A DNA stretch of 64,000 bases. Source: a virus. The notes under the pieces are model-generated. The model ran no database searches, had not been told where the DNA came from, and saw nothing but the letters and a program-made list of their open reading frames with translations. Position numbers and translations under genes: made by a program. Below are positions 29,909 through 57,241 of this stretch, piece after piece. The first letter of the stretch is position 1. The number at the start of each line of letters is the position of its first letter. The DNA lies in the IMG/VR virus record IMGVR_UViG_3300037264_001145, positions 32,001-96,000 of that record. One strand, written 5' to 3'.

Positions 29909-30535
29909 ATGAGCGTATCAATTTATGTAGGAGAAGACCAATTACTTCCAAGCACTTCCGGCCTTGGTTTTTATGGGAACGATGGCTTTGGCGAATCAAT
30001 ACTCATAGGAGAGTATAATGGAAGAATGTTTGTTACAAACGCCTCCGGAACAGAAGAGGGCTTTGAATGTAACAACAATAAATATTTGAACACATCTGGC
30101 GTTATTTATGGACAGACCGGAAACGGTATTCAATTAATTAGTTTGCCAAACAGTTTAGCTACTATCAATGTCAGATTTGAATATGTGACAGAGGTTAAAA
30201 CTCTTGCTGGTAGATTTTATATATTCGATGGAACGCTGGACGTAGACGATATACCGATGACAGGCAATCCTCCAAGCGGATTAACCTGTTATACCGCCGA
30301 GACAAGACATCAAACCGAAACCCAAATTCCTGACGGGATAGGAGATACCGATTGGCTTGACACACAAGGGAGTACTTATCTAGAGGTAATTAGTTCCCCA
30401 GGAACAAGCGGATTAAGGCCGAATGGTTCCAATACCTTAGATACGAGACATGATTGGTATATAGCTATGACCGCTACTCCATTTCAGTTTGGGAATAAGC
30501 AATTTGCTATGTATTTTGAGACTGAATTTTTATAA
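29909..30535 (+). CDS. Virion protein, paralogue of 31517..32149
   Basis: Shares GFYG..FG.S, NNKYL..S.GV, SPG.SGL.PNG and D.RHDWYI...ATP with 31517..32149. Confidence 0.6.
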   Translation: MSVSIYVGEDQLLPSTSGLGFYGNDGFGESILIGEYNGRMFVTNASGTEEGFECNNNKYLNTSGVIYGQTGNGIQLISLPNSLATINVRFEYVTEVKTLAGRFYIFDGTLDVDDIPMTGNPPSGLTCYTAETRHQTETQIPDGIGDTDWLDTQGSTYLEVISSPGTSGLRPNGSNTLDTRHDWYIAMTATPFQFGNKQFAMYFETEFL

Positions 30536-31382
30536 GATCTAAAATAGATTGTGTAAGTTTAGCTTCATTAAATACCTGTTTTTGAACAACTCGTATTTTA
30601 ATTTTTCCGCATATACTTATGTTTTTATCTTTATAATTCAATAATATTGTCCGTTTCTTCTTCTTCGATAATAGATTATTTTTTTGTTCATCTGTTAATT
30701 TTATGTCACCAACTATTCTTCTTAGAGACGTTATAGGGATATCTAGCTCCATGGATATGTCTCTTAACGAACGCCCCAACGCCCTTTGTTGTCTAGCTAA
30801 AAATTCTTTTGTTGGACCTATTGTAAGATTTATACTATCCGATAATTTTAATATTCTTTGATATTTGTTTGTTTTTTTATTTTTTTTAATAATTTTTTGT
30901 TCTTTTAATACTTGTTTTTTAATATGTTTAATGGTGCATTTATGTATGTTAAATTTATTTACAATTTCATTAAAACCAAGATTGTTTAAAATCATTTCTT
31001 TTATTTTAATTATTTTATTATTGTCGATACTACTAATTTCTTTATCAATCATTGATTTTCTGTGTAATGCCCTATCTTCTCCATTTTCTTTTGGAGTTCC
31101 CCATTTTATGTTTTCTATATTATTGTTTAATTTATTTCCATCAAGATGTCTACATTGAAAACTCTGTGGTCTATTTCCAGAAAAAGTTTCTAAAATAAGT
31201 ACATGTATTTTTTCTATTTTCCCTTTCAAACAAATAGCCATATATCCATTAGACATAATAAATGGTTTTACAAATTCCTTTTTATCTATATTAAATATTC
31301 TTCCATCTCTATAAGCTAATAAGTTATTATACCTTGGTACTATTTTGGTTTTTACTTCCATTTTTCTTTTTTCCTGACACAC
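30507..31382 (-). CDS. HNH homing endonuclease (HNH_3 type) with a C-terminal helix-turn-helix-like region, inverted in the structural operon
   Basis: IHVLILETF.G.RP...CRHLDGNKLNNNIENIKWGTPKEN; ATG at 31361 is an alternative start; very AT-rich. Confidence 0.85.
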   Translation of the reverse strand: MCQEKRKMEVKTKIVPRYNNLLAYRDGRIFNIDKKEFVKPFIMSNGYMAICLKGKIEKIHVLILETFSGNRPQSFQCRHLDGNKLNNNIENIKWGTPKENGEDRALHRKSMIDKEISSIDNNKIIKIKEMILNNLGFNEIVNKFNIHKCTIKHIKKQVLKEQKIIKKNKKTNKYQRILKLSDSINLTIGPTKEFLARQQRALGRSLRDISMELDIPITSLRRIVGDIKLTDEQKNNLLSKKKKRTILLNYKDKNISICGKIKIRVVQKQVFNEAKLTQSILDLIKIQSQNT

Positions 31383-31516: not shown

Positions 31517-32149
31517 ATGGCTGCTGCGATAACTTTTTTTGGTGGTGTAGGCGCTGGCGAAACCGGCTTGGGAGCTTCTGGTGTAGGATTCTACGGCGCT
31601 ACCTTTGGTAGCTCTGTTCAAGTAGCATCTTATCAGGACACGACTTTCATTACTGATACTTTAGGGACAACCAATGGTGGACAAATTGATAATAACAAGT
31701 ATCTTGGTACTTCAAGTGGTGTTAAGGTTAATGCGTTTGACAATGAGATTCTTGCTAATGTTCCTACTATCTCTGGAACATTGAATGTGAGATTTACATT
31801 TGATACCCCAGTAATGACACAAAACGGCGAGTTCAGAATTTTTGACAGAGCGGACATAACCTTACCAGCCACAGGCGTCACCTGTTGGGTAGCTATGATC
31901 GGTAACGGCGGTTCTGGTGTCAACCAGACCACTGGGGAGGCTCAGGCGGGCCATAACGGATGGGCAGCACTGTCTGGAGCATCGCCAAAATGGGTGCTGT
32001 TGGCTAGTCCAGGAGAGTCTGGTTTAAGTCCGAACGGTACGGGAACCAACGACGACAGACATGACTGGTATATATCATTGTCGGCTACACCAACATCTAT
32101 CGGGTCGAAAACAGACTTTGGGGCTTATGTCGCCCTCGAATACCTATAA
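31517..32149 (+). CDS. Virion protein, paralogue of 29909..30535
   Basis: Shared motifs as above; RBS aagggtga; followed by a terminator. Confidence 0.6.
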   Translation: MAAAITFFGGVGAGETGLGASGVGFYGATFGSSVQVASYQDTTFITDTLGTTNGGQIDNNKYLGTSSGVKVNAFDNEILANVPTISGTLNVRFTFDTPVMTQNGEFRIFDRADITLPATGVTCWVAMIGNGGSGVNQTTGEAQAGHNGWAALSGASPKWVLLASPGESGLSPNGTGTNDDRHDWYISLSATPTSIGSKTDFGAYVALEYL

Positions 32150-32172: not shown

Positions 32173-32206
32173 AAAAGCCAGATTTATTCTGGCTTTTTCT
32201 TTTTTA
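32173..32206 (+). terminator. Intrinsic terminator
   Basis: Stem aaaagccaga / tctggctttt, loop tttat, T-rich tail. Confidence 0.75.
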
Positions 32207-32213
32207 TAAAATA

Positions 32214-32221
32214 GTGTATAA
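32214..32221 (+). promoter_or_regulatory. GTGTATAA motif
   Basis: Exact motif after the terminator and before RBS gaggag. Confidence 0.5.
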
Positions 32222-32239
32222 AATAGAGGAGCATTCTAT

Positions 32240-32578
32240 ATGAACCAGAGAACATATTGCATGGATGGCGTCACCCTCTGTGATTCGGTTCAGGAATCAA
32301 AAATTGCAAACTGGCTTTATCTAAATGGAATCACCTTTGAAGCCCACAAGAAATTACCAAAACCATCAAGACAAAAATGTGATTTTTACTTGCCGGATTA
32401 TCAACTATGGGTGGAATGGGACGGGTTGATGGCCGTAAGACAACTTTCTTCAGATCACGCAGATCTTCGGGCAGATAGAAAAGTATCATTTTATAAAAGC
32501 CACGGAATGAAATTTGTGGTCTTAAACAGAGAAAATAATTGGGAGTCTTTATTGCATGAGGCTATTTTTTTGTCATAG
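32240..32578 (+). CDS. PD-(D/E)xK endonuclease-like protein (Vsr/DUF559-like)
   Basis: DS..E..IA.WL...GI.FE...CDFYLPD..LWVEWDG. Confidence 0.7.
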   Translation: MNQRTYCMDGVTLCDSVQESKIANWLYLNGITFEAHKKLPKPSRQKCDFYLPDYQLWVEWDGLMAVRQLSSDHADLRADRKVSFYKSHGMKFVVLNRENNWESLLHEAIFLS

Positions 32579-32586
32579 GATGTGAA

Positions 32587-32838
32587 ATGAAATTCCTTAA
32601 CACTCAAAAAGTATTGACTGGATTACTGGTGAGCTTATTGGGTCTGGTTGGGGGAGTAGCTGCCGCATCCTATTCTGTAGGAGTAGAAAAAACTAAAATT
32701 ACACAAAAGGTTGAAGAGCACGAAAAAGCGTTGCTTGAGATAAATACATATCTTAAAGAAATAAGTCAATCTATTCGCGCTATAGAACTGGATGTGGCTG
32801 TCCTGGCTGACGAACATGCCAATCGAACAACCCCTTAA
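32587..32838 (+). CDS. Single-TM coiled-coil membrane protein (holin-like)
   Basis: N-terminal hydrophobic helix then a heptad-like region; last gene of the late arm. Confidence 0.45.
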   Translation: MKFLNTQKVLTGLLVSLLGLVGGVAAASYSVGVEKTKITQKVEEHEKALLEINTYLKEISQSIRAIELDVAVLADEHANRTTP

Positions 32839-33292
32839 TTGCTTCCGTTAACAGGATACTTAAAACCACAGCCTCCCCATCTGAAATTGCGTGTTTGAAA
32901 TTAATAGAAGCGTCTGTTCCTTTTTTCACACTTAGTCCAATATAATAACCAGCATACATTCCTTTTTCAAATTTCAATACGGCGTTTCCATCTTTATTAG
33001 AATGAAATAAGCCCTTATATTTATCGTTATCCTTTTCTTTCGGACCAGCACCATTTTTAACACCGTCTAAAACCGATAACAGTTCTCCCATATCTGTTAC
33101 GCCCAATTTGAACACAAGCTTTTTTTTCCAATTAAATGTTGCATTTCCATTCTCGTCTTTTGTTGGAAGTTGTGCTGCTATCTCGAAAAACACACACCCC
33201 TTGTCTTTTGAAAATTCAAATTGCGAGGCAGCGCCACTACCGTCTGGTTTAGCTTTGTATATTTTGTAAGATTCTATGAATTTAGTTTCCAT
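32780..33292 (-). CDS. Whirly-fold single-stranded nucleic acid-binding protein
   Basis: Motif-by-motif resemblance to plant WHIRLY domains as I recall them: KIYKAK, FNWKKKLVFKLGVTDMGELLS, LFH, VLKFE, LSVK, ISDGEAVVL...LFDWH. Confidence 0.7.
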   Translation of the reverse strand: METKFIESYKIYKAKPDGSGAASQFEFSKDKGCVFFEIAAQLPTKDENGNATFNWKKKLVFKLGVTDMGELLSVLDGVKNGAGPKEKDNDKYKGLFHSNKDGNAVLKFEKGMYAGYYIGLSVKKGTDASINFKHAISDGEAVVLSILLTEAIKGLFDWHVRQPGQPHPVL

Positions 33293-33304
33293 TTTTCTTC
33301 ACCC

Positions 33305-34162
33305 TTATCTTTTCAATTTTTCTTGTACGTGTCCAGTTTGTCTCATATTATTGAGATTAGATAAAACAACCAATCCTTCACAATGTTTTAGATATTTCAT
33401 ATCTACTACGCCATTATTAACAACAGAAGAAATCTCTAAATCATCAAGCAATTTCTTTATTGAAATACCGAGTCGATCACTTAAAAGTCTGATAGCTGTT
33501 ATTTGTCCTGTATTAATTAGTTTATTAGCATCATCTACTTCTTCGTCTTTTGTAACCCCGATTTCTTCCGCAGAAACAACTCTCTTAAGTTTTAATGCTG
33601 CACGATATGCTCTACCCTTTGCTCTTGTATCGGCCATTGCCACTGGATAGATTGCAAAATCTTTGGTACAGTTTGACGGACACGCATCGGCTAACGCCTC
33701 GAAAATTCGTCCATCAGAAAAAACAATACTAGCCTTAGCACAAGCCCTTTCTCCATTTTCCATTGTTGGGGCAGATACAAGTTCGCATTGTTCTCTCGAT
33801 ACTTCCCCAAGCAATAGTTCTGCAACACGTCGCAACCCTTCGAGACGTGGATGTTCACCATCCATTTCATCATCCTGGAACAACCCTAATACATATTGTG
33901 TCCACGCAGGACTGGACGGTTCGGGTATGTCATTAACATTTACATCTACTGTTGTAGAAGCATCTTCTTCCGGAGGAGGATCAACCTTGACCGCATCATC
34001 TGATTCTAAATCTTGTTTTAATTTATCTAAAATAATCAAGGAATCTTCTCCGCGCTTTTCTTCTGCCAACATTTCCTTTAATGCTCCAAGCTTTAAACCA
34101 GAAATTTCTTCTTTGTCACATCCCATCATCAACAATTCTTCAACTATGTCAGACTTTTTCAT
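33305..34162 (-). CDS. Single-strand annealing recombinase (Rad52/Sak-like)
   Basis: PRLEGLRRVAE...ACAKASIVF...FEALADA...AMADTRAKGRAYRAAL....VSAEE pattern. Confidence 0.6.
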   Translation of the reverse strand: MKKSDIVEELLMMGCDKEEISGLKLGALKEMLAEEKRGEDSLIILDKLKQDLESDDAVKVDPPPEEDASTTVDVNVNDIPEPSSPAWTQYVLGLFQDDEMDGEHPRLEGLRRVAELLLGEVSREQCELVSAPTMENGERACAKASIVFSDGRIFEALADACPSNCTKDFAIYPVAMADTRAKGRAYRAALKLKRVVSAEEIGVTKDEEVDDANKLINTGQITAIRLLSDRLGISIKKLLDDLEISSVVNNGVVDMKYLKHCEGLVVLSNLNNMRQTGHVQEKLKR

Positions 34163-34640
34163 TCTTCATGTCCTCGACTATGAACTTTATTATTTCAACC
34201 AAATTAAAAGATTTTATCACCTCGCTATTAATTAACTTAACCCTTGGATCGTGACTCCATCCTTCTACGCTATTATACGAGTAAATGTAAATATTTTTTG
34301 ATCTACTATTAAGGGCTGATTGAAGCGTAGAATTACTAGTAACTATCAACGGAGATGTCCACGAACAAATAAAGCGTATATCTAAAATTGGGGCCAAAAC
34401 AAAGATGCACGGCTGATCTAAATCATGGGTAAAAATCGACACGTCTACGCCGGCGAAGTTATTAAAAATGTAATTGATGTTGTTAAATGAATCAATATTC
34501 ATTTGTGATTTTCCTAGATTATCGAACAGTATTGCTGTTGAAAACAATTCGCTATCCAAAGACATTCCCAATCTTTGGAAAAGAATTTCTCCATCCCTTT
34601 TTCTTTTTTCAGCTTCTTTCTTTTTATTATCCATTATCAA
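34149..34640 (-). CDS. Hypothetical protein, possibly a degenerate glycosyltransferase-like domain
   Basis: Coupled ORF in the GT operon; no catalytic motif recognised. Confidence 0.45.
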   Translation of the reverse strand: MIMDNKKKEAEKRKRDGEILFQRLGMSLDSELFSTAILFDNLGKSQMNIDSFNNINYIFNNFAGVDVSIFTHDLDQPCIFVLAPILDIRFICSWTSPLIVTSNSTLQSALNSRSKNIYIYSYNSVEGWSHDPRVKLINSEVIKSFNLVEIIKFIVEDMKNEKV

Positions 34641-35406
34641 TAATCACATTTACTGGGCATGACAAGCAAATTCCTGATAATTCTTCTTCTCTTAGGTTTT
34701 CCGTAAAAGTTCTGAACGCTTCTGTCGGTCGCGTTAATGTCTTATAGGCATCTGTTATATAAAGTCCGTACACTTGTGGGAAAGGAAGAACAATAGTTTT
34801 GGCAATCCTATTCATGAATGGCCAAAAGACAAATCTTGTGTCTTTATCATTCACTTCTTCTGTCATCGTTATTATATCTTTTCCAGATAAAATTTTGTTA
34901 CTAGGAACAACAACGAAATATTTTTCTTTGATTGTTTTGGATATTCTCTTCACAGTTTGTTCTGGTTTTTCTTCTTCGTGACTTGGAACAAGAACGTCCA
35001 GATTTTTTAGACCTTTGTGATTTTTGAATATATCAATTATTTGCGATCTATTAGTTTTTCTTGTGACATCTGCTATGATAATTCTTTTACATAAAATAGG
35101 AATATTATAAGAATCAATAGGGCTTACTGGATATGAACTATAAGTTAAACTACGCCCAAGAGATTGAAGGTTATCGTCGTCACTATGAATAATAACAAGA
35201 TCAAATTCTAGCTTAGATTCTTGTATAGCTAATTGTATTAATTTTTCCTGTGTTGCGTTCTTGTTCTTGGCCCATTTTTGGGAACGCCAGTATCGACAAA
35301 ACCCAACAGCGTATGCGCATTTAGAAGTATTTATAAAAAATTGGTTAGCTAGACATTTATTATCTTTAAAATGGCAACATTTATTACAATCGCTAGCGAT
35401 CACCAA
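34627..35406 (-). CDS. Hypothetical protein with a Cys-rich N-terminus and a degenerate GT-A-like region
   Basis: CNKCCHF...C...C..GFC N-terminus; FDLVII...RIIIAD segment. Confidence 0.45.
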   Translation of the reverse strand: MVIASDCNKCCHFKDNKCLANQFFINTSKCAYAVGFCRYWRSQKWAKNKNATQEKLIQLAIQESKLEFDLVIIHSDDDNLQSLGRSLTYSSYPVSPIDSYNIPILCKRIIIADVTRKTNRSQIIDIFKNHKGLKNLDVLVPSHEEEKPEQTVKRISKTIKEKYFVVVPSNKILSGKDIITMTEEVNDKDTRFVFWPFMNRIAKTIVLPFPQVYGLYITDAYKTLTRPTEAFRTFTENLREEELSGICLSCPVNVIIDNG

Positions 35407-35412
35407 ATTCTC

Positions 35413-36423
35413 CTAATCAACCAACGTAGCACATGGAGTATCAATTGTAGAATAAAATATCTCGTTCCACTTTTCAATGAAATTTGTGTGGCCGAACTTG
35501 TCTAAAATTGTTTGTCTTGCGTTATTTCCAATTTTTCTTGCTAAATCTTTATCGTTCATCAACTCTTTGCAACGAGAAACCATTTGATCTATATCGTTCG
35601 TTATGAAACCATTTTCACCATCTACTACGACATCTTGTATGTCTGTGGTTTTAGTTGTAACAACAGGACAACCAACAGCCATAGCTTCTAATAATTCATA
35701 AGGACAAGATAGCCACGTCGAAGTATTGAGAAAAACAGAACATCTCCTATAGTAATCAACTAATTCATTCAAGTCTTTGGCTGGCGCAGAAAAGCCAGGA
35801 GACATTCCGATTAGAAACAATTTTATTTGTTTCCCTATCTTTTCCAGTATATCGAAACCAGTCGGACCTTTTCTGTTCTGAAAATAATCTACGTTTAACA
35901 GAACTTTGTTGTCGCAACCTGTCCAGCCATTGAATATATCTGTGTCCACACATTTCGGCATAATCATAACATCTTGTTCGTCAAGCCCCCATGCGTTACA
36001 CACAAACTTGGAACAAAAAATTTGCTTATTGCTAATTTGATCCGCTAACGCCTGGATGACAAACTGATTCATTTCTGGAAAAGGCAGAAAATTATTAACG
36101 GATATAATAGGACAACTAATACTATTGACTATTTTTAATAGATATGGATAGTCTCTAGCTCTTTGCTGACATATCACTAAGTCAATGCCCATATTTACTT
36201 GGTCTTTAGCTTCTCCTGGCAGCAAGAGAATACAGTTGTCTGGTTTTTCTCTTATTGCTGGGTTCCACATTGGGGTATTTGGTACATTCAAATAATAAAA
36301 ATTGTGTCCAGTTTTTGCGAGCATGTCTTGAAATTTTTCTTCGCAATTGACAGTGAATATGTTCAACTTGTCATTGTCTGGTCGATTAATACCCCGAAGG
36401 ATTGAAGAAAATTGTGTTGCCAT
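35413..36423 (-). CDS. GT-B (GT4-like) glycosyltransferase
   Basis: VFLNTS...LLEAMAVGCPVVTT...VVDGENGF...ARKIGNNARQTI. Confidence 0.9.
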   Translation of the reverse strand: MATQFSSILRGINRPDNDKLNIFTVNCEEKFQDMLAKTGHNFYYLNVPNTPMWNPAIREKPDNCILLLPGEAKDQVNMGIDLVICQQRARDYPYLLKIVNSISCPIISVNNFLPFPEMNQFVIQALADQISNKQIFCSKFVCNAWGLDEQDVMIMPKCVDTDIFNGWTGCDNKVLLNVDYFQNRKGPTGFDILEKIGKQIKLFLIGMSPGFSAPAKDLNELVDYYRRCSVFLNTSTWLSCPYELLEAMAVGCPVVTTKTTDIQDVVVDGENGFITNDIDQMVSRCKELMNDKDLARKIGNNARQTILDKFGHTNFIEKWNEIFYSTIDTPCATLVD

Positions 36424-36483
36424 TATTTTTCCTAATTCGTTATAAGTTGACCATTATCGGTTAAAATTGTTACTTTTATCAAT

Positions 36484-37656
36484 CTAATCATTCAATAATC
36501 CCTTTAAAATAATACCCACATTTTCATGAGAAAAAGCCCTGATCCTTTTTTCCGCAGCAAGACCCCTCTCCTTTAAAGTTTCATTCCCGTATTCTAAATA
36601 GGCTCTTTTAAGAGTTTCTACGAAAGATGGTAAGCAAATATCGAACCATTTTTCTGATCCAGTATACATATCATTAAAGCCATTTAATTGGCCAAAACAA
36701 TACGTTAATTGTCCCTTAACTAACCACCCACAGTCAATTTCTCCGGGATATATGAATGTCTCTTTGTTGGGTTCCCAATATCTATAAGCCTGCACATAAC
36801 ACAATTCTGGATGAAATCCCCAATTGCTTAAAATGACTGGATTTCCATATCCCATGGCGTCCATCGCAGGAATGTTTCCTCCTTCTCCGTGACTTGTGGA
36901 AACAAATACGTTGCAGGACGCATGAAGTTGTGATAATTGTTCGTCTGATAAACGCTCCACAAGAACCATTATTGGGGGATATTTATTTTCTTCGTTGTGT
37001 ATATGAGTAGCCTTTTTTATATCGAGGATTAGCTTCCTCATTGTCTGCATTCCCCTTTCGGGCTTAAATCCTGGTACACTCGTCTTGATTACTAAAAGTA
37101 CATTTTCCTGGTTTGTGAACGCCGCATAATATCCTCTTATTAAACCGGCAATATTTTTTCTTCTTGTATTTTCTCCAATAAAATAGAAAACACATTTATC
37201 TTTTGCCGCTTCAAGTTTTGATATGTTCGGTTTATTATTGTACTTTTCTATATCGCACGAATGAGGGAAAATTTTTACTGGTACTGTTACTCCGCTATTT
37301 AAACAGGCGGTTTGGTTTTGAATACTTGGAACCCAAACTTCTGTCATTTGATTTAATGAGTCAACCCATGTTTTACAAATAGTATTGGTTTCCCAATCAA
37401 AAATACCTATATTTCTTATGGTTTTAAGTGGGACGTATGTGACTGGTAGACAATGCTGAATAACAACGTCTACATTTTTCAAGTTTTTTTGTTCTAGGTG
37501 TTTAACTACACACACTTGTTTCGGAGGAGACTGCTCCATTCTGACGGGGCGACACACAACATCGTATCCCATTTTTTCCAACGCAAGTATATTGTCTCTT
37601 GCCGCATGAGCATATCCGGTCCCGTCTCTGTAAACCGATAAGTAGGCAATTTTCAT
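36484..37656 (-). CDS. GT-B (GT4-like) glycosyltransferase
   Basis: RKNIAGLIRGY...VFVSTSHGEGGNIPAMDAMGYGNPVI. Confidence 0.9.
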   Translation of the reverse strand: MKIAYLSVYRDGTGYAHAARDNILALEKMGYDVVCRPVRMEQSPPKQVCVVKHLEQKNLKNVDVVIQHCLPVTYVPLKTIRNIGIFDWETNTICKTWVDSLNQMTEVWVPSIQNQTACLNSGVTVPVKIFPHSCDIEKYNNKPNISKLEAAKDKCVFYFIGENTRRKNIAGLIRGYYAAFTNQENVLLVIKTSVPGFKPERGMQTMRKLILDIKKATHIHNEENKYPPIMVLVERLSDEQLSQLHASCNVFVSTSHGEGGNIPAMDAMGYGNPVILSNWGFHPELCYVQAYRYWEPNKETFIYPGEIDCGWLVKGQLTYCFGQLNGFNDMYTGSEKWFDICLPSFVETLKRAYLEYGNETLKERGLAAEKRIRAFSHENVGIILKGLLND

Positions 37657-39362: not shown

Positions 39363-39909
39363 GTAATTTATCTCTTATTTTCTTAAACATTCTACATTTT
39401 TCTGTTCTACTTTTGTCTGTTTCGTCCGTTAATAATAAGTCCATTTCTTCTTCGGAGAGTCTGTCGTTAATTTCCATCAAATCCACTGGTTGTCTCATGT
39501 CTTGTATATCGTCACGTATTTCATTAATCGACATAGAAAGTTGTTTTAATTCCATCAATCTTTCATAAGATATATTTAACGTTCTGGCAATATATTCTTC
39601 TGTTTTACCATTATTAATATGCTGTCTAATTTTAGATGCTAAAACTTTATCTACAAATGAAGCATGTAGCGGTCCTGTAGATTTAATAGCCTCGTTTCTC
39701 ATTTCGTGACTTATTGACGCACAAACATATGTTTTGAATGAACCTTTTTCTATTTGCCATCGCTTACAAGCCTTCCACAATGCGATTAGTCCTATTTGCG
39801 TATAATCGTTGCGCGACAAATAGCTGTTGTGATAGATGATGGATACCCTACGAGACAAGCTATTGATAAACCTAATATATTGCTTGTAGTTAGAACGGAA
39901 TTTCTTCAT
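39355..39909 (-). CDS. Phage-encoded sigma-70 family sigma factor (region 2 clear, region 4 degenerate)
   Basis: NDYTQIGLIALWKACKRW..EKGSFKTYV...I..EMRNE (region 2); short C-terminus lacking a full HTH. Confidence 0.8.
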   Translation of the reverse strand: MKKFRSNYKQYIRFINSLSRRVSIIYHNSYLSRNDYTQIGLIALWKACKRWQIEKGSFKTYVCASISHEMRNEAIKSTGPLHASFVDKVLASKIRQHINNGKTEEYIARTLNISYERLMELKQLSMSINEIRDDIQDMRQPVDLMEINDRLSEEEMDLLLTDETDKSRTEKCRMFKKIRDKLHV

Positions 39910-40381
39910 TCTCTTCCGCCTCTGATGGTACTGTTACTGGTTCTGGTTGCGGCTGTGATTTAACAGCAGTAGGCTTTGTCTTTTTGTTTTGGGGAGGAGC
40001 AGGAGCGGGAGCGGGAGCAACTTCCTTCTCCACAGAAGCAGCAACGACTGTTTCCCCATTTGTTTTTTGTACGACTTCAAAACTATTCAAAGTTAACACA
40101 AGAACCGTTCTTTTATCACCCTCCGTACTAGTCCATGAATCTTGTTTAATATAACCTTCAACAAAAACAGGAACACCCTTCTTGACAAATTGTGCAAACT
40201 TTTCGGCTCTTGGTCCAAAAATTTGACACTTAACAAAAGACACTTCCTTTTGCCACGCCCCATCCTTGTCCTTATAACTCTTATTGAAGGCTAAACTTAC
40301 GTTAGCCACGCTCGAAGTACCAAGTGGTCGCATTTCACTATCGGTTGTGGCGATCCCAACCCCATAAGCCTTGAGTTCCAT
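39890..40381 (-). CDS. ssb: Single-stranded DNA-binding protein
   Basis: OB-fold VANVSLAFN...EVSFVKCQIFG..AE....KKG..VFVEG.I....W and an acidic EEIPF tail. Confidence 0.93.
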   Translation of the reverse strand: MELKAYGVGIATTDSEMRPLGTSSVANVSLAFNKSYKDKDGAWQKEVSFVKCQIFGPRAEKFAQFVKKGVPVFVEGYIKQDSWTSTEGDKRTVLVLTLNSFEVVQKTNGETVVAASVEKEVAPAPAPAPPQNKKTKPTAVKSQPQPEPVTVPSEAEENEEIPF

Positions 40382-40430: not shown

Positions 40431-42185
40431 TCAAATTAATTTTCGAAGATCTGTAATAATTATTGATCCATTCTGTTTATGTCCAAAAATCATACAAACT
40501 AATGTGTCTTTACAAAGTCCATGAATTTTCTCATAAGTGTCTGGAAAAACTACCGCATGATCAATACTGTACGAAGAATCAGATATTGTAAGAAAACACA
40601 TTGGCGCACCAGGATTTTTCCCCTTCTTTGTCTTGGTGTGTTTTACGGAATCTATTACAGCACAAACCGAAAAACTTTCGCCGTTCAAAGCCTTAATTAA
40701 ATCTAAACAATTGTGTGAAGCAGCACTATCATCTGCGTCGTCAGAAGGAGAACAACTTAAAGAAATACCAAGGAAATATTTTTCTGCTGTTGATTTACCA
40801 AGATTCGTGTCTATTTCATCTTTTGCTAATTGATTCAATTTACCTTCGATGACTTTTAATCTTTTCGGCCCGACGCATGATTTGGAGGAGGATTCGTCAT
40901 AACCATTTTCTTTTAATTTGTTGATAATATCAAGCTTGGTCATTCCAGAAAAATCAAATGTTTCCCCTAGAATATTTTTAGACCATCCTATAATATCATC
41001 TTTTTTCATAGACGATAGAGACTTGCCTGGCATTTTTGACGCTTGTTCAACCATTTCGGTTAGAACATCTCTCATAGTTTTGTCGTCGCCATCGAACAAC
41101 TTATCAAAAAACCAATCTCTCTCCTTGTCTGTCAAGCCCCTAATTTCTTTATTTTTACCATCCTTGTCCCTGACAGACGTGCCAAATAGAATTTCTAGTT
41201 CTTTTACCATTTGCGATCTTTCCATTTGGTAACAGTCACAGGCACCGGATTTTATTAAAGCAATCCCAACGCTTCTATGGATAAGAGGTAACGATTTTAA
41301 AAACTCGTTCCACGTAGATAAAGATTCCTTGCTTTGTTCTACGATTTTAGATATCGCAGATTGACCAACCCCCCTTATATTTGAAAGACCAAATTTTATA
41401 CCGCTGTCTATCATTTGGAAGTGGACATTACGAACCCTAATATCGGGCGGAAATACATCTATCCCAAACAATCTTGCGTCCTGTACTAGCTTATAGACCT
41501 CTTCTTTGGGATCGGATTTGTAATTAGAGAATGTTAAATAACTAGTAAAAAATTCGTTTGGAAAGTGTGTTTTTATCCAAGCCGTTGTATAACTAAGCAT
41601 CCCATAACTTATGGCGTGGGATTTATTAAAAGAATATCTTTGACTTTTTTCAATCCATCCAAAAATTTGTTTTGCTGTATCTGTTGATACCAATCCTTTT
41701 TTAAGACACCCATCTATGAATTTGATTTTTAATTTTGCCATTAGCTCTGGTTTTTTCTTACCCATGGCTTTTCTTAGTTCGTCTGCGTTCTCTAACGAGA
41801 ATCCCGCAACTTCTGTTGCTATTTTGATGGCTTGTTCCTGATAGACCAAACAACCGTAAGTGTCGCCCAAAATATCTTTGAGACGTGGGTGCAAATAATT
41901 GGGTTGTTTTCTACCAAATTTTATATCTACGTATTCTTCAGATTGTCCACTTTCTAAACAACCCGGCCTCACCAATGCGGTCAGCGCAGCTAATTCCTGA
42001 ATATTTGATGGCTTGACTTTTCTAGCCCATTCTTGTCCAAGTCTAGTTTCCAGTTGAAAAACACCCGTAGTAAAACCAGAGGATATTAGTGCCCAAACCG
42101 CAGCGCAATCTAATGATATATTATTTGAATCGAATTTGCCTTTTTCGACTTGGCAATCACAAGAAGAAAATTTAATCGTGTCCAT
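40431..42185 (-). CDS. dnaE: DNA polymerase III alpha, C-terminal half (fingers, HhH, OB)
   Basis: TTGVFQLE, ALVRPG, LVYQEQ, LRKAMGKKK, YSFNKSHA, IKFGLSNIRGVG, C-terminal OB fold. Confidence 0.93.
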   Translation of the reverse strand: MDTIKFSSCDCQVEKGKFDSNNISLDCAAVWALISSGFTTGVFQLETRLGQEWARKVKPSNIQELAALTALVRPGCLESGQSEEYVDIKFGRKQPNYLHPRLKDILGDTYGCLVYQEQAIKIATEVAGFSLENADELRKAMGKKKPELMAKLKIKFIDGCLKKGLVSTDTAKQIFGWIEKSQRYSFNKSHAISYGMLSYTTAWIKTHFPNEFFTSYLTFSNYKSDPKEEVYKLVQDARLFGIDVFPPDIRVRNVHFQMIDSGIKFGLSNIRGVGQSAISKIVEQSKESLSTWNEFLKSLPLIHRSVGIALIKSGACDCYQMERSQMVKELEILFGTSVRDKDGKNKEIRGLTDKERDWFFDKLFDGDDKTMRDVLTEMVEQASKMPGKSLSSMKKDDIIGWSKNILGETFDFSGMTKLDIINKLKENGYDESSSKSCVGPKRLKVIEGKLNQLAKDEIDTNLGKSTAEKYFLGISLSCSPSDDADDSAASHNCLDLIKALNGESFSVCAVIDSVKHTKTKKGKNPGAPMCFLTISDSSYSIDHAVVFPDTYEKIHGLCKDTLVCMIFGHKQNGSIIITDLRKLI

Positions 42186-53552: not shown

Positions 53553-54018
53553 ATATTATATCCTCAAACCCTTCCGATAAATCTGGTTTCTCCAATTGTT
53601 TATTTAATTCACAAATTACACTGTCGGGAACTTTCTTTTCGTTTCTTCGAAAGTTGTGTTGCAAACAAGAACCCAAGCTTTTGTCAAAATATAAAGCTAT
53701 GATTTTAAATCCAAAAGCTTTACCAAATTCAATCCAATAAGTCCTACTTTCTTTATTTATAAGCCACGCACTCTCATCAAGTATTATACTAAGATTTGGA
53801 TTTTTGGATAAAGCAAAAATTATATGGCCGACAATTTGTTTTAAATAATCTTCTTTATCTTTATTATATTGTTCTTTGTAGAACGCTAGTCTGAAATCAT
53901 CTACCGAAATAACAACAATATTTTTTTCTCTTTCGGCTATTTTTCTTGACGCCGTTGTTTTACCAGATGCTGGCGGGGCTACGGTTAAATACAAGTACCT
54001 AGTCATCAACCTCAACAC
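53545..54018 (-). CDS. P-loop kinase (polynucleotide kinase/AAA_33-like)
   Basis: VAPPASGKTT Walker A, IS.DDFR, IILD, CL..N.RR...VP..VI. Confidence 0.8.
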   Translation of the reverse strand: MLRLMTRYLYLTVAPPASGKTTASRKIAEREKNIVVISVDDFRLAFYKEQYNKDKEDYLKQIVGHIIFALSKNPNLSIILDESAWLINKESRTYWIEFGKAFGFKIIALYFDKSLGSCLQHNFRRNEKKVPDSVICELNKQLEKPDLSEGFEDIIYG

Positions 54019-56356
54019 CTTCCTGTATTTCGATACTGCTATCTATTCCGTTGATCAAGTCTTGTGCTAACCACACTTTGTCCAAGGCAACAACCCCAAG
54101 AAAGTCGAACTTTACACATCCAAGAGCTTCACTAGACTCCATTTCTAAGCCAACAATTCTCGTCTTGTTTTTGGGGTCGTAAATAAGAGGCACGAGGTCA
54201 TTAATTGGTACATCTGCTATAACGAGACCTGCTGCGTGACGGCTTTGTGATTTTTTAGTTCCTTCCAATCTCATACTTTGATCAAATAGTGGTTTGTACC
54301 ACTGATAATATTCCTTCATTTTTTCTATGTTATCAATACTCCAATTTAAAATACCGTAACTAGAATTCTCTGTTTCTTTTCGTATTTTTTGTAAATCATC
54401 TATGATCGAAGCTTCATCTGGCATTAAACCAGTAATTTCATTGGATAAATCAAATGGGGTCATAGAGACTTCGTTTGGATTCTTGCCCTCTTTTGTTGCC
54501 TTAACTTTCATTAGATGTTTAACTAAATCTGGCTGGGCACGGAAAACTTCTTTAAGAGCGGCTTTTCCTTGAAGTCTACCGAACGTGACCATTTGAGAGA
54601 CCTTATCTTCGCCCCATTTGTTAATCAAATATTCAACAACTTTTTCCCTAAACACCACACCAATATCCATATCTATATCGGGAAGACTAATATGGCCAGG
54701 ATTTGTTTGGACGGATTTGTTTTCATCCAACTTGCAACACATCCTTAATGCATCCACGATATGTGAATTATTTGGATTTGGAAATTCTAATCCCAAAACC
54801 TGGTCCTCTGATGATGAACACATTGTTTGATTATTTTTGAATACTTCTAATATATATAACCACATCTTTGGATTATTATTATCTATCCAATCAGCTTCTT
54901 CTTTAAGTAATTTTTTATTATGTATACTTTTGTATTTTAAATTACATTGGATAATTAAATTCTTTATTATATTTCTTGTATCATCAATTTTTTCTTGAGT
55001 TATAGAATCGGAATTATCTGATAACCATTCCATGAATGTTGTTGGCCCGACATCAAAGTGTGGTGGTATATTTCTTCCATGATTATAGAATCTTTCCCAA
55101 TATAAATCATACTCAATAGGATCTATTCCAGTTATATTTAGTAGATAATTAACCAAAGATCCTGCGCCAGAACCTCTTCCTTTTCCTCTTGGAGCTTTGT
55201 TTTCGTCAACAAATTTACAAGCATCATAAACAATTAGAAAATAGTCCGCAAGTCTAGCCTCTTTGATAACGGACAATTCCCTAAGCAGTCTTGTCCAGTA
55301 TATTTTTTTCTTGTCCATTGATAGGTTGGACAAGATGTTTTTGGCTCCTTGAACACATAATTTTTTCAGGTAATCATCAGAAGAATCATTGTTGGGAGTT
55401 TGGTATTTAGGTAAGCAAGGTTTCCTTCCAATGCTTGTAGATTTTATCATATCGGTAATTACAAGCGTTTGTTCCATTTCGGATTTGCTATAGTGTTCCT
55501 GCATTTCTTCTGGAGAGAATATATAGAATGTATCTCGGAAGAAAAAGGACATGGTATCTGCGCCCTCTCCTTTAAGTCTAGCTTGTTCCTCTGCCGTTGT
55601 ATGAAGTTGGCTATACAGAAGTATTCTATGATCTTCAACCTGCTCCCTTTTGGCATAATGTGCATCTAACGTACAAGCAGACGGTACATCCAAAGCCTTT
55701 GATACTTCTCTCAAACATTCCACGGCAACTTTTTGGGCTGGCATCCCTTCTTCCTGTAATTCTATGAAGTAGTTTTCCTTACCAAAAATTGAAATATATC
55801 TAGCAACAATTTCGTCGGCTATATTTCTCCAATTCGGTTTGAGTAACTTTCTAACTTCGTCCATATCTTCTGTTTGTTCGCCTATTAAACACGCCTGACC
55901 GACATCTGTGAATAAAGATTCTGATAATTCACCGATGATACAACCACTCAAACATATTAAATTGCGATTTTTAGTAAAGAGATGTAAATTATCTACGCCA
56001 ATTCTAGGTTTTCTGTAAAAGTGCTCTGGTTGATTGGTGTAGCTAACAAGAGACATTAGTTCTTTTATACCATCGTCGTTTTTGGCCAGGATTGTTAAAT
56101 GGTTGTGGGACTTATTCTCGTTGGTTTTAATGGTTTGATCAAGTTTAGACGTATATATTTCACATCCGTAGACTGGTTTGATTCCATATTTTTTGCAAGC
56201 TTTTTGAAAATCAACCATTCCAGAAACATTGCCATGATCTGTCAGAGCACAAGCTGGACAACCAATTTCTTTTGCTCTTTTAGCAATTTGTTCGGGACTT
56301 GAGAGGCCGTCTAAAAGACTAAACCAACTATGAACATGCAAACAACTATAACACAC
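53999..56356 (-). CDS. dnaE: DNA polymerase III alpha, N-terminal half (PHP, palm, thumb)
   Basis: LHVHS.FSLLDG, LTDHG, GRGSGAGSLV.Y.L.IT.IDP, PDIDMD, HAAG.VI, VKFDFLG. Confidence 0.93.
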   Translation of the reverse strand: MCYSCLHVHSWFSLLDGLSSPEQIAKRAKEIGCPACALTDHGNVSGMVDFQKACKKYGIKPVYGCEIYTSKLDQTIKTNENKSHNHLTILAKNDDGIKELMSLVSYTNQPEHFYRKPRIGVDNLHLFTKNRNLICLSGCIIGELSESLFTDVGQACLIGEQTEDMDEVRKLLKPNWRNIADEIVARYISIFGKENYFIELQEEGMPAQKVAVECLREVSKALDVPSACTLDAHYAKREQVEDHRILLYSQLHTTAEEQARLKGEGADTMSFFFRDTFYIFSPEEMQEHYSKSEMEQTLVITDMIKSTSIGRKPCLPKYQTPNNDSSDDYLKKLCVQGAKNILSNLSMDKKKIYWTRLLRELSVIKEARLADYFLIVYDACKFVDENKAPRGKGRGSGAGSLVNYLLNITGIDPIEYDLYWERFYNHGRNIPPHFDVGPTTFMEWLSDNSDSITQEKIDDTRNIIKNLIIQCNLKYKSIHNKKLLKEEADWIDNNNPKMWLYILEVFKNNQTMCSSSEDQVLGLEFPNPNNSHIVDALRMCCKLDENKSVQTNPGHISLPDIDMDIGVVFREKVVEYLINKWGEDKVSQMVTFGRLQGKAALKEVFRAQPDLVKHLMKVKATKEGKNPNEVSMTPFDLSNEITGLMPDEASIIDDLQKIRKETENSSYGILNWSIDNIEKMKEYYQWYKPLFDQSMRLEGTKKSQSRHAAGLVIADVPINDLVPLIYDPKNKTRIVGLEMESSEALGCVKFDFLGVVALDKVWLAQDLINGIDSSIEIQEGVEVDD

Positions 56357-57241
56357 TTAATTGCTCCTGTTTACAGAAATTTGATGATATTTATTTTGAA
56401 CATATTCTTCGCCGAACGTATTTAAATCTGACCAAATTTGCGTACACGCATCCTCTTTATTATACGGGCACAACTTACATTTCCATGAACGGCTGCGGCG
56501 GATTAAACTGTCTTTTTTAATCTGCTGAAAAATCTCGTATAGTTGCGACAAAATAAATGGAATATCTTCGTCCGATAAACCTATCGTTGTAGGACCATCT
56601 TGTGTGTAATAAAAAGTTAAAATCACGTTTTTGTACTGTGGGTACAACGCTCTAGCCGCCATAAAATAAAATCTAGCTTGCAATTTTTGAGTTAAGCCAT
56701 AAAAATCCATCTCGGTTTTATCAAAAGGACTACTTCTGGTGCCACTCTTGTAGTCTACAATCTCTATCGTGTCCCCATCAATTTCGTGAACTAGGTCAAT
56801 ATACCCACGTACCCGAATCTGTTTTGTCTCGCCTCCGTCCCGAATCTCCCATTCGGGGCCAGGAAGTTCTACAGCAAACCATTGTTCTGCATCTACTATT
56901 TTCAAAACATATGGATTATAAAATTTGTCTTCGACAATTTTTAAAAATGATGCTTTGCACTTTTTGTAATCAGCCGACAGTCCGCGACTAGTAAATTTTC
57001 TTAAATCTATATGGGGGTTTTCGTCCCATGATCTATCAAACAACCACGAAGGATCGACATTTGTTTTTCCTTTTTTCTTTAATCTCGCCATCCATTCAAG
57101 GGCTGTGTGTATGATTGTTCCAACCGTAGCGGCCTTCCCGCTACCACTAGATTCTAGTTCCAGGCAATATGTTAGCCAATATTTAAAGGGACAAAATTTA
57201 TATGTATCTATGAGGCTTGAACTAAATTTGATTATACGCAT
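56357..57241 (-). CDS. Cas4-like PD-(D/E)xK exonuclease
   Basis: S.S.I..Y..CP..Y, GTIIH.ALE, GYIDLV, IVDYKSG, C-terminal CKLCPY....C. Confidence 0.85.
   Translation of the reverse strand: MRIIKFSSSLIDTYKFCPFKYWLTYCLELESSGSGKAATVGTIIHTALEWMARLKKKGKTNVDPSWLFDRSWDENPHIDLRKFTSRGLSADYKKCKASFLKIVEDKFYNPYVLKIVDAEQWFAVELPGPEWEIRDGGETKQIRVRGYIDLVHEIDGDTIEIVDYKSGTRSSPFDKTEMDFYGLTQKLQARFYFMAARALYPQYKNVILTFYYTQDGPTTIGLSDEDIPFILSQLYEIFQQIKKDSLIRRSRSWKCKLCPYNKEDACTQIWSDLNTFGEEYVQNKYHQISVNRSN

Follow-up and report, generated by a model that had tools for sequence, protein, structure and literature searches.

A 64,000-nucleotide (nt) stretch of viral DNA, hereafter the window (bases 32001-96000 of the 119,615-base IMG/VR virus record IMGVR_UViG_3300037264_001145, which is estimated to be ~71% complete), encodes on its minus strand a 170-amino-acid (aa) protein (32780..33292) that is a true homologue of the plant Whirly proteins by sequence and by fold. 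Its gene directly follows that of a 285-aa protein (33305..34162) which, from its predicted structure, is likely a single-strand annealing protein (SSAP, or annealase) of the Rad52 superfamily belonging to an unannotated family, such that the pair resembles a module of familiar type, an annealase with a single-stranded DNA (ssDNA) binder, in which the binder would here be the Whirly protein. Whirly homology and fold, an annealase-like architecture and a conserved adjacency of the two genes were each computed here. An earlier sequence-only reading of the window had suggested this pairing, and both open reading frames (ORFs) lie, on the minus strand, at the positions that it gave.

To establish the identity of the 170-aa protein, we compared it with known families and structures, which revealed a match to the Pfam Whirly family PF08536 that scores 25.5 bits (gathering cut-off 23; E 1.3e-5) and takes in positions 27-133 of the 136-position profile, as well as HMMER matches in the PDB to AtWHY1 (4koo, E 0.0017) and potato p24 (1l3a, E 0.013). 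The aligned blocks (FNWKKKLVFKLGVTDMGELLS / YDWSKKQVFSLSVTEIGTLVS, LFH / FFH, VLKFE / VLKVE, and the C-terminal helix with its W) are nearly identical to those that the sequence-only reading had set against WHY1. The AlphaFold (AF2) model, built with the family alignment as input, reached a predicted local distance difference test score (pLDDT) of 94.9 and a predicted template modelling score (pTM) of 0.86 and consists of two beta-sheet-plus-helix repeats, with the domain spanning residues 8-158 (nt 32819-33271) and followed by a 12-residue non-conserved tail. Structural comparison with VIA-align gave Z 18.0, 17.6 and 17.4 to AtWHY2, AtWHY1 and PBF-2 p24, and Z 16.8-18.0 across all plant WHY1/2/3 entries (root-mean-square deviation (rmsd) 2.6-2.9 A over 134-143 residues), followed by MRP1/2 (Z 16.0-16.4) and then a fall to Z 8 at Pur-alpha, the first unrelated fold. 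Foldseek also placed plant Whirlies on top (E 6.5e-8, probability 1.0), so that plant WHY structures rank first in both fold comparisons, of which the Foldseek one had been proposed as a check on a whirligig-type fold. In the monomer model, the C-terminal helix (residues 138-155) and Trp158 are those conserved in the Whirly family. As a separate observation, an 83-aa ORF on the opposite strand (32587-32838, plus), convergent with the Whirly gene, has a hydrophobic segment at its N-terminus and weak PHROG matches to Rz-like spanins; it covers the final 59 nt of the Whirly gene, which encode the non-conserved tail (residues 152-170).

Set against plant Whirlies (WHY1/WHY2/WHY3 and PBF-2 p24), the window protein is homologous over the whole domain and shares the two-repeat fold (Z 17-18), a Y-K start, an F/Y-x-W strand, the invariant His of (L/F)FH and a C-terminal helix ending in Trp, although identity is only 20-28%. 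It differs from them in having neither a transit peptide nor a C-terminal acidic/aromatic tail, in carrying an extra loop of ~11 residues before the His motif and in lacking the plant insertion after that motif. The KGKAAL hallmark of plants appears to be replaced by YKAKPDGSGAAS; across this position, where the window protein has IYKAKPDGSGAAS, HMMER pairs YKAK with YKGK, unlike MAFFT, which places GSGA opposite GKAA after a 4-residue insert. KGKAAL is a motif of higher-plant Whirlies whose second Lys is required for 24-mer assembly, and algal and Marchantia Whirlies lack it (PMC9070903).

Evaluating the family further, we found five close homologues in a 5.8-billion-protein index, and a profile from these five recovered, among 1.84 billion representatives, 564 clusters formed at 50% identity when the threshold was E <= 1e-3, of which 313 remained at E <= 1e-10, mostly from phages and nearly all 150-190 aa long. 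Unaided, 36 of 113 family members matched PF08536 (best E 1.6e-9), in further support of the Whirly-like identity proposed earlier, and against the PDB the family profile retrieved StWHY2 (E 9e-4), AtWHY2 and AtWHY1, with MRP2 (E 0.05) after these. The corresponding ESM Atlas clusters are unnamed and mostly viral, and BFVD includes a UniProt entry auto-named 'Whirly transcription factor [uncultured Caudovirales phage]' as well as weaker fold matches from cultured Acinetobacter and Bacillus phages. By sequence, no cultured-phage member of the family was found among 50,697 phage records (tblastn with the window Whirly and with its relative P0278 gave no match), and a profile scan of IMG/VR with alignment A1 found nothing.

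A subset of the family carries a feature of bacterial single-stranded DNA-binding proteins (SSBs). In six of 155 family representatives (P0200, P0217, P0242, P0247, P0259 and P0268), a disordered low-complexity tail ends in an SSB-type tip, the endings among the six being DIPF, EVPF, DLPF, DMPF, EIPL and NIPL. Tip-bearing genes were located at L005:8001-8576 (P0217), L004:8001-8591 (P0242) and L009:8001-8531 (P0268), with the first two adjoining an annealase gene. Because these tails end in the bacterial SSB tip motif, they suggest that tip-bearing Whirlies act as SSB-like hubs and that in such members the Whirly fold substitutes for an SSB of the oligonucleotide/oligosaccharide-binding (OB) fold. 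The window Whirly lacks an acidic C-terminal tip of SSB type and ends in ...DWHVRQPGQPHPVL.

The model of the 285-aa protein (pLDDT 90) begins with a helix-extended-helix (HeH, SAP-like) element and a long helix as assigned by DSSP (residues 1-54; 34001..34162, minus), for which PF12949, present in 19% of the members of a related Atlas cluster, offers a lead only. A disordered linker rich in acidic residues and Pro follows (residues 55-75, with a pLDDT dip at 55-70), then a core resembling the RAD52 N-terminal domain (residues 76-196; 33575..33937, minus) and a small helical C-terminal domain (CTD) resembling that of Red-beta (residues 211-281; 33320..33532, minus). Foldseek ranked human RAD52 (probability 0.95-0.97) and the phage 80-alpha Sak SSAP highest, with weak E-values (6e-3). 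With VIA-align, the core reached Z 8.4 to RAD52 8rjw_A (101 aa aligned at rmsd 4.9 A) and Z 7.6-7.9 to further RAD52 entries, Sak scoring Z 7.3 and Mgm101 Z 6.2-6.4, with Gp77 also among the matches, and it holds an Arg-rich helix in which T179, R180 and R184 are invariant and R187 nearly so. The CTD was compared with two Red-beta structures, solved with an SSB C-terminal peptide (8tg7; Z 8.2, rmsd 1.7 A, 61/66 residues) and with lambda exonuclease (6m9k; Z 7.7, rmsd 1.5 A). None of 117 homologues has a Pfam domain and many lie on 140-180 kb contigs, while IMG/VR holds 397 loci with relatives. In the phage collection a single cultured-phage record was matched, Paenibacillus phage API480, in which the homologue stands between an annotated host-nuclease inhibitor gene and an annotated canonical SSB gene. 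The core alone is not decisive, because double-stranded-RNA-binding domains (dsRBDs) tie with RAD52, and we call the protein a probable annealase because the RAD52-like core, the Red-beta-type tail and the invariant Arg-rich helix occur in combination, in addition to the API480 context.

We next evaluated how the two genes are arranged, in the window and elsewhere. Within the 12-nt intergenic junction (33293..33304, minus), the Whirly ATG is preceded by AAGGGTGAAG, a stretch of mostly purines that resembles a Shine-Dalgarno site, and the annealase and Whirly genes are probably co-transcribed; promoter and terminator signals sought in 32200-36600 did not rise above chance. At 8 of 12 Whirly loci (the window, L002-L006, L012 and L014) the annealase gene precedes Whirly on the same strand, immediately or at a short distance, with Whirly identity across these loci of ~31-62% and, at L002 and L003, a 216-219-aa gene inserted between the two. 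Seen from the annealase, a Whirly gene follows at 27 of 80 IMG/VR loci, including 25 of the 27 closest; measured stop to stop, the reading frames abut or overlap at 23 of the 27 paired loci (-111 to +12 nt) and are separated by 193-928 nt at four, and more distant annealases align only from residue ~39-87 onward. The pairing proposed from one sequence is thus upheld by conserved adjacency, and its retention across divergent phages argues for a functional pair. The unassigned 216-219-aa insert, one insertion of which splits annealase and Whirly, also belongs to the variable genes of the region. Other variable genes near the locus are of homing-endonuclease type (HNH/NUMOD4, GIY-YIG, AP2, or a PHROG 'homing endonuclease' match); these and the insert account for 32240-32578 (plus) and 30507-31382 (minus) in the window and for L002:9329-9988, L002:140-823 and L003:2139-3104 in relatives, the set differing per relative.

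How might such a pair work? We consider it somewhat probable, on structural models and gene order, that the cassette serves phage recombination with the 170-aa protein as an ssDNA binder partnering the annealase. In the mechanism we propose, the HeH/SAP-like N-terminus of the annealase would tether double-stranded DNA, the RAD52-type core would anneal and the Red-beta-type CTD would bind a partner. The Whirly-fold protein, made from the annealase transcript and probably homotetrameric, would coat ssDNA arising from end resection or replication and serve as the annealase's own ssDNA-binding partner. It might pass ssDNA on to the annealase or, in the manner of plant organelles, it might keep short microhomologies from annealing and so restrict joining to long homologies, for example in concatemer formation or recombination-dependent replication. 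The phage also encodes, as the sequence-only reading had claimed, a canonical OB-fold SSB (39890..40381, minus; PF00436 E 1.9e-18) with a Pro/Ala linker and an acidic tip ending ...EENEEIPF, which would serve the DnaE replisome and whose IPF tip may be bound by the annealase CTD; because, by their PDB titles, the Red-beta CTD structures were solved with an SSB peptide and with lambda exonuclease, the annealase could dock on a tip of this type. We infer ssDNA binding from homology, from the neighbouring annealase gene and from the SSB-type tips of relatives, and we also infer the tetramer, physical or functional coupling and the direction in which annealing would be modulated. In plant mitochondria, WHY2 and the Rad52 homologue ODB1 co-purify, and microhomology-mediated recombination increases when either is lost (PMC9070903, PMC6981420), and Whirly tetramers are thought to stop spurious annealing (PMC3245945). 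Taken together, the tips of the relatives, the possible SSB-tip docking and the WHY2-ODB1 parallel support an ssDNA binder that would work with the annealase.

Several observations weigh against this account. Within the locus DNA examined, the annealase is absent from four Whirly loci (L007, L008, L009 and L013), and at 49 of 51 Whirly-less annealase loci with an extracted downstream ORF a ~108-aa gene encoding a CxxC...CxC zinc ribbon stands there instead (e.g. L051:4664-4984 and L071:4759-5085; weak Pfam hints of Lar / Zn-ribbon). From the Whirly-bearing and zinc-ribbon loci, the pair is therefore a clade-specific yet evolutionarily stable module. Because the Whirly-less clade has the zinc-ribbon ORF at that place, we rejected the notion of an SSB gene invariably following the annealase. 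A distinct ssDNA role has to be assumed for the window Whirly, which lacks an SSB tip in a phage with an SSB of its own, and proteins of the Whirly fold can bind RNA, as MRP1/2 and phage ChmC do (PMC11077065). For the 285-aa protein, the Rad52-like label of the sequence-only reading is supported by predicted structure but not by sequence, since searches of Pfam, PHROG and the PDB (phmmer and profile) gave no match, and the SSAP families PF04098, PF06378, PF03837 and PF04404 were not among the Pfam families listed at E <= 1 for 44 members. Its core matches RAD52 to a moderate degree (Z 8.4 at rmsd 4.9 A), with dsRBDs tying at Z 8.0.

These points give room to three other readings, each less well supported than a recombination cassette. 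One holds that the Whirly-fold protein is chiefly an RNA binder, acting in mRNA handling or regulation like ChmC or trypanosome MRP1/2, and that adjacency to the annealase is incidental. MRP1/2 do fit the model nearly as well as plant Whirlies (Z 16.0-16.4 vs 16.8-18.0), ChmC shows a phage using the Whirly fold for RNA, and plant WHY1 binds RNA too (PMC9070903). We nevertheless regard this as quite improbable, as the sequence likeness is to plant Whirly and not to MRP (PF08536 above its cut-off; StWHY2 E 9e-4 vs MRP2 0.05), no known protein detectably resembles ChmC in sequence, the adjacency to a DNA annealase is conserved and some relatives bear SSB-type tips. Alternatively, the Whirly protein could act as an SSB analogue in replication at large, or as a nucleoid-type protein that compacts DNA, and merely share an early or middle operon with the annealase. 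The tip-bearing relatives do resemble full SSB substitutes, plant Whirlies compact nucleoids and form 24-mers, and at L008 and L009 the Whirly gene stays at the operon end without an annealase; set against this are the complete OB-fold SSB with its own tip that the phage retains and the tight adjacency that survives heavy sequence divergence and gene insertions, and we think such a role unlikely.

A further reading concerns the partner, which may be another nucleic-acid binder with a dsRBD-like alpha-beta-beta-beta-alpha core, so that a 'Rad52-Whirly pair' would be a misnomer. Scores of Z 7-8 put dsRBDs level with RAD52, and the weak Foldseek E-values (6e-3) and the SSAP families unmatched by sequence point the same way. 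The annealases RAD52, Sak, Mgm101 and Gp77 recur among the matches, however, and the RAD52 alignment covers residues 76-196 vs ~105-193 for dsRBDs. A separate Red-beta-type CTD at rmsd 1.5-1.7 A, the position of the API480 homologue, flanked by an SSB gene and by one annotated as Gam-like, and an Atlas Sak-SSAP lead at 0.86 likewise speak for an annealase, leaving the dsRBD-like alternative with a small share of our belief.

Comparison with known systems places the putative annealase-Whirly cassette among annealase modules with a cognate SSB (lambda Red-beta with host SSB; HK620 Sak4/SSB; API480), in which an annealase gene is likewise followed by that of a small ssDNA-binding protein and, in the Red-beta modules, the annealase has the type of CTD that binds the SSB tip, as in the window annealase. 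It differs from them in that the partner has a Whirly fold and not an OB fold, no exonuclease gene adjoins, and the annealase belongs to an undescribed family with an extra HeH/SAP-like N-terminus. Among phage proteins, ChmC of Chimalliviridae is a tetrameric Whirly-fold nucleic-acid binder, as is proposed for the window protein, and by its published description is built of beta-beta-beta-alpha repeats with a disordered N/G-rich tail, prefers RNA and acts in mRNA export from the phage nucleus (PMC11077065). Unlike ChmC, the window protein is related in sequence to plant Whirly and stands in linkage with genes of DNA recombination, and none of its BFVD structure matches was identified as ChmC. 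The PC4-like binders of phage T5 and bacteria (YdbC, SP_0782) share the same broad superfold and an implied role in recombination-dependent replication, but they have a single repeat and dimerise (type II), whereas the window protein is of the tandem-repeat type I (PMC7549692); PC4 entries were absent among the structural matches listed for it. Plant Whirlies resemble the window protein in having a Rad52-like protein as neighbour or as partner (in plant mitochondria, ODB1), although only the window Whirly is phage-encoded and (probably) co-transcribed with an annealase.

The sequence-only reading had also raised a viral or bacterial origin of plant Whirly, and we examined plant and phage homologues in a phylogeny in which plants were represented by seven angiosperm WHY1/WHY3 sequences (obtained with a 73-residue AtWHY1 segment as query, whose listed matches were all angiosperm WHY1/WHY3). 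A small subgroup of the family (P0147, P0185, P0210 and P0234) has a plant-like (L/F)(F/Y)HDP motif and shares with plants a loop of 16-18 residues before it, vs 21-35 in most others, and an insertion of 15-17 residues after it, vs 8. Scanning GTDB species genomes with this subgroup revealed seven loci, all in metagenome-assembled genomes (MAGs) of Candidatus Micrarchaeota, and the Micrarchaeota Whirly genes (L007:8001-8732 and L017-L023, e.g. L019:2827-3264 and L021:4709-5143) stand in a setting largely common to the MAGs (TFIIB - TRM - L35Ae - DHH (RecJ-like) - Whirly - two unassigned genes - TrmB), often overlapping the DHH gene and with no annealase in the neighbourhood. Micrarchaeota Whirlies thus belong to the same family as the window protein and share its domain and conserved residues, but they are chromosomal, lack the annealase and have the plant-type HDP motif and indels that the window protein lacks. 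In a separate setting, the HDP-type gene P0147 directly follows a Schlafen/AlbA_2 + HATPase_c_4 gene on a short contig (L013:563-1867).

Free quick trees were poorly resolved, and a placement of plants beside P0272/P0186 in the first of them was dropped after a constrained search exposed that topology as a search failure. The best tree joining plants with the HDP subgroup lies 38.6 log-likelihood units above the free search (p-value of the approximately unbiased test (p-AU) 0.91), in an analysis with WHY1-type plants only, no outgroup and a long plant stem (~2.5-2.8 changes per site). Plants group with the Micrarchaeota subgroup on account of shared indels and likelihood, and the window gene appears to be a cousin and not a candidate ancestor of plant Whirly. 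On the origin of plant Whirly, these results extend and in part contradict the suggestion of the sequence-only reading, the affinity of the plant proteins being with a chromosomal archaeal subgroup and not with the clade of this phage. Speculatively, and with more doubt than conviction, one could see in the cassette a phage counterpart, possibly an evolutionary relative, of the plant ODB1(RAD52)-WHY2 system: Whirlies would have arisen among prokaryotic viruses and archaea, a lineage kept by Micrarchaeota would have given rise to plant and algal Whirlies by horizontal transfer, and the ancestral job would have been control of Rad52-type annealing on ssDNA.

At the level of the fold, Whirly/PC4-like proteins of phages were already known, as ChmC (PMC11077065) and the PC4-like protein of T5 (PMC7549692). 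Reviews and a 2026 preprint call Whirly plant-specific or plant-unique (PMC9070903; 10.64898/2026.10.24.761589), and our literature search found no account of a phage or archaeal Whirly family, nor of a pairing with an annealase. A family called plant-specific thus has a large phage branch and an archaeal branch, and the phage radiation of hundreds of clusters, along with a Micrarchaeota clade possessing the plant indels, brings the origin of Whirly within reach of phylogenetic analysis. The two-gene cassette could provide a minimal setting in which to study the effect of a Whirly protein on Rad52-type annealing, the same question that WHY2 and ODB1 pose in plant mitochondria. It would add an unannotated annealase family and a predicted non-OB ssDNA binder to the phage recombination toolkit and may be useful for recombineering.

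Two further genes are conserved at the locus. A 163-aa gene (34149..34640, minus) overlaps the annealase start by 14 nt and has jackhmmer homologues just upstream of the annealase in 63 locus ORFs, and a 259-aa gene (34627..35406, minus) comes next, with 45 syntenic homologues. Neither the former, tried as a possible Gam or exonuclease, had a Pfam or PDB profile match, nor the latter a significant Pfam match; both keep their place ahead of the annealase whether or not the clade has Whirly, and from this synteny they may be further parts of the module. An exonuclease adjoining the annealase was sought, and the record holds none of YqaJ type; its only PD-(D/E)XK nucleases lie 22 kb from the annealase-Whirly pair or outside the window, the former (56357..57241, minus; Cas4/RecB-like, PF12705 at 88 bits) being a candidate resection partner.

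More broadly, the window has a G+C content of ~37% and a strand bias that flips near 32 kb, with plus-strand genes of virion type to the left of the switch and a long minus-strand gene string to the right. A scan for tRNA genes in the window found none, and no close cultured relative of the phage was found, its best DnaE matches being ~33% identical. The minus-strand string begins with the Whirly-like gene, the 285-aa gene, two unassigned genes, three GT-B glycosyltransferases and a sigma-like factor. Behind these come the OB-fold SSB and then the two DnaE halves, C-terminal before N-terminal, with a 13-gene glycan cluster between them and the PD-(D/E)XK nuclease after them. Two paralogous ORFs (208-210 aa; 29909-30535 and 31517-32149, both plus), which share the ending ...RHDWYI...TP...G...EFL / EYL, enclose an HNH-like gene where the virion module ends. 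DnaE (Pol III alpha) is split in two ORFs, 40431-42185 and 53999-56356 (both minus), into a PHP+NTPase half and a finger+HhH half, and the ~11.8 kb between them is occupied by glycan-synthesis genes (Gmd, DegT aminotransferase, GT2/GT7C paralogues, LicD, cytidylyltransferase, sulfotransferase and methyltransferases). On related phage contigs, a gene like the RuBisCO large subunit (PF00016) lies within the glycan/methyltransferase cluster (L008:5317-6471 and L009:468-1655).

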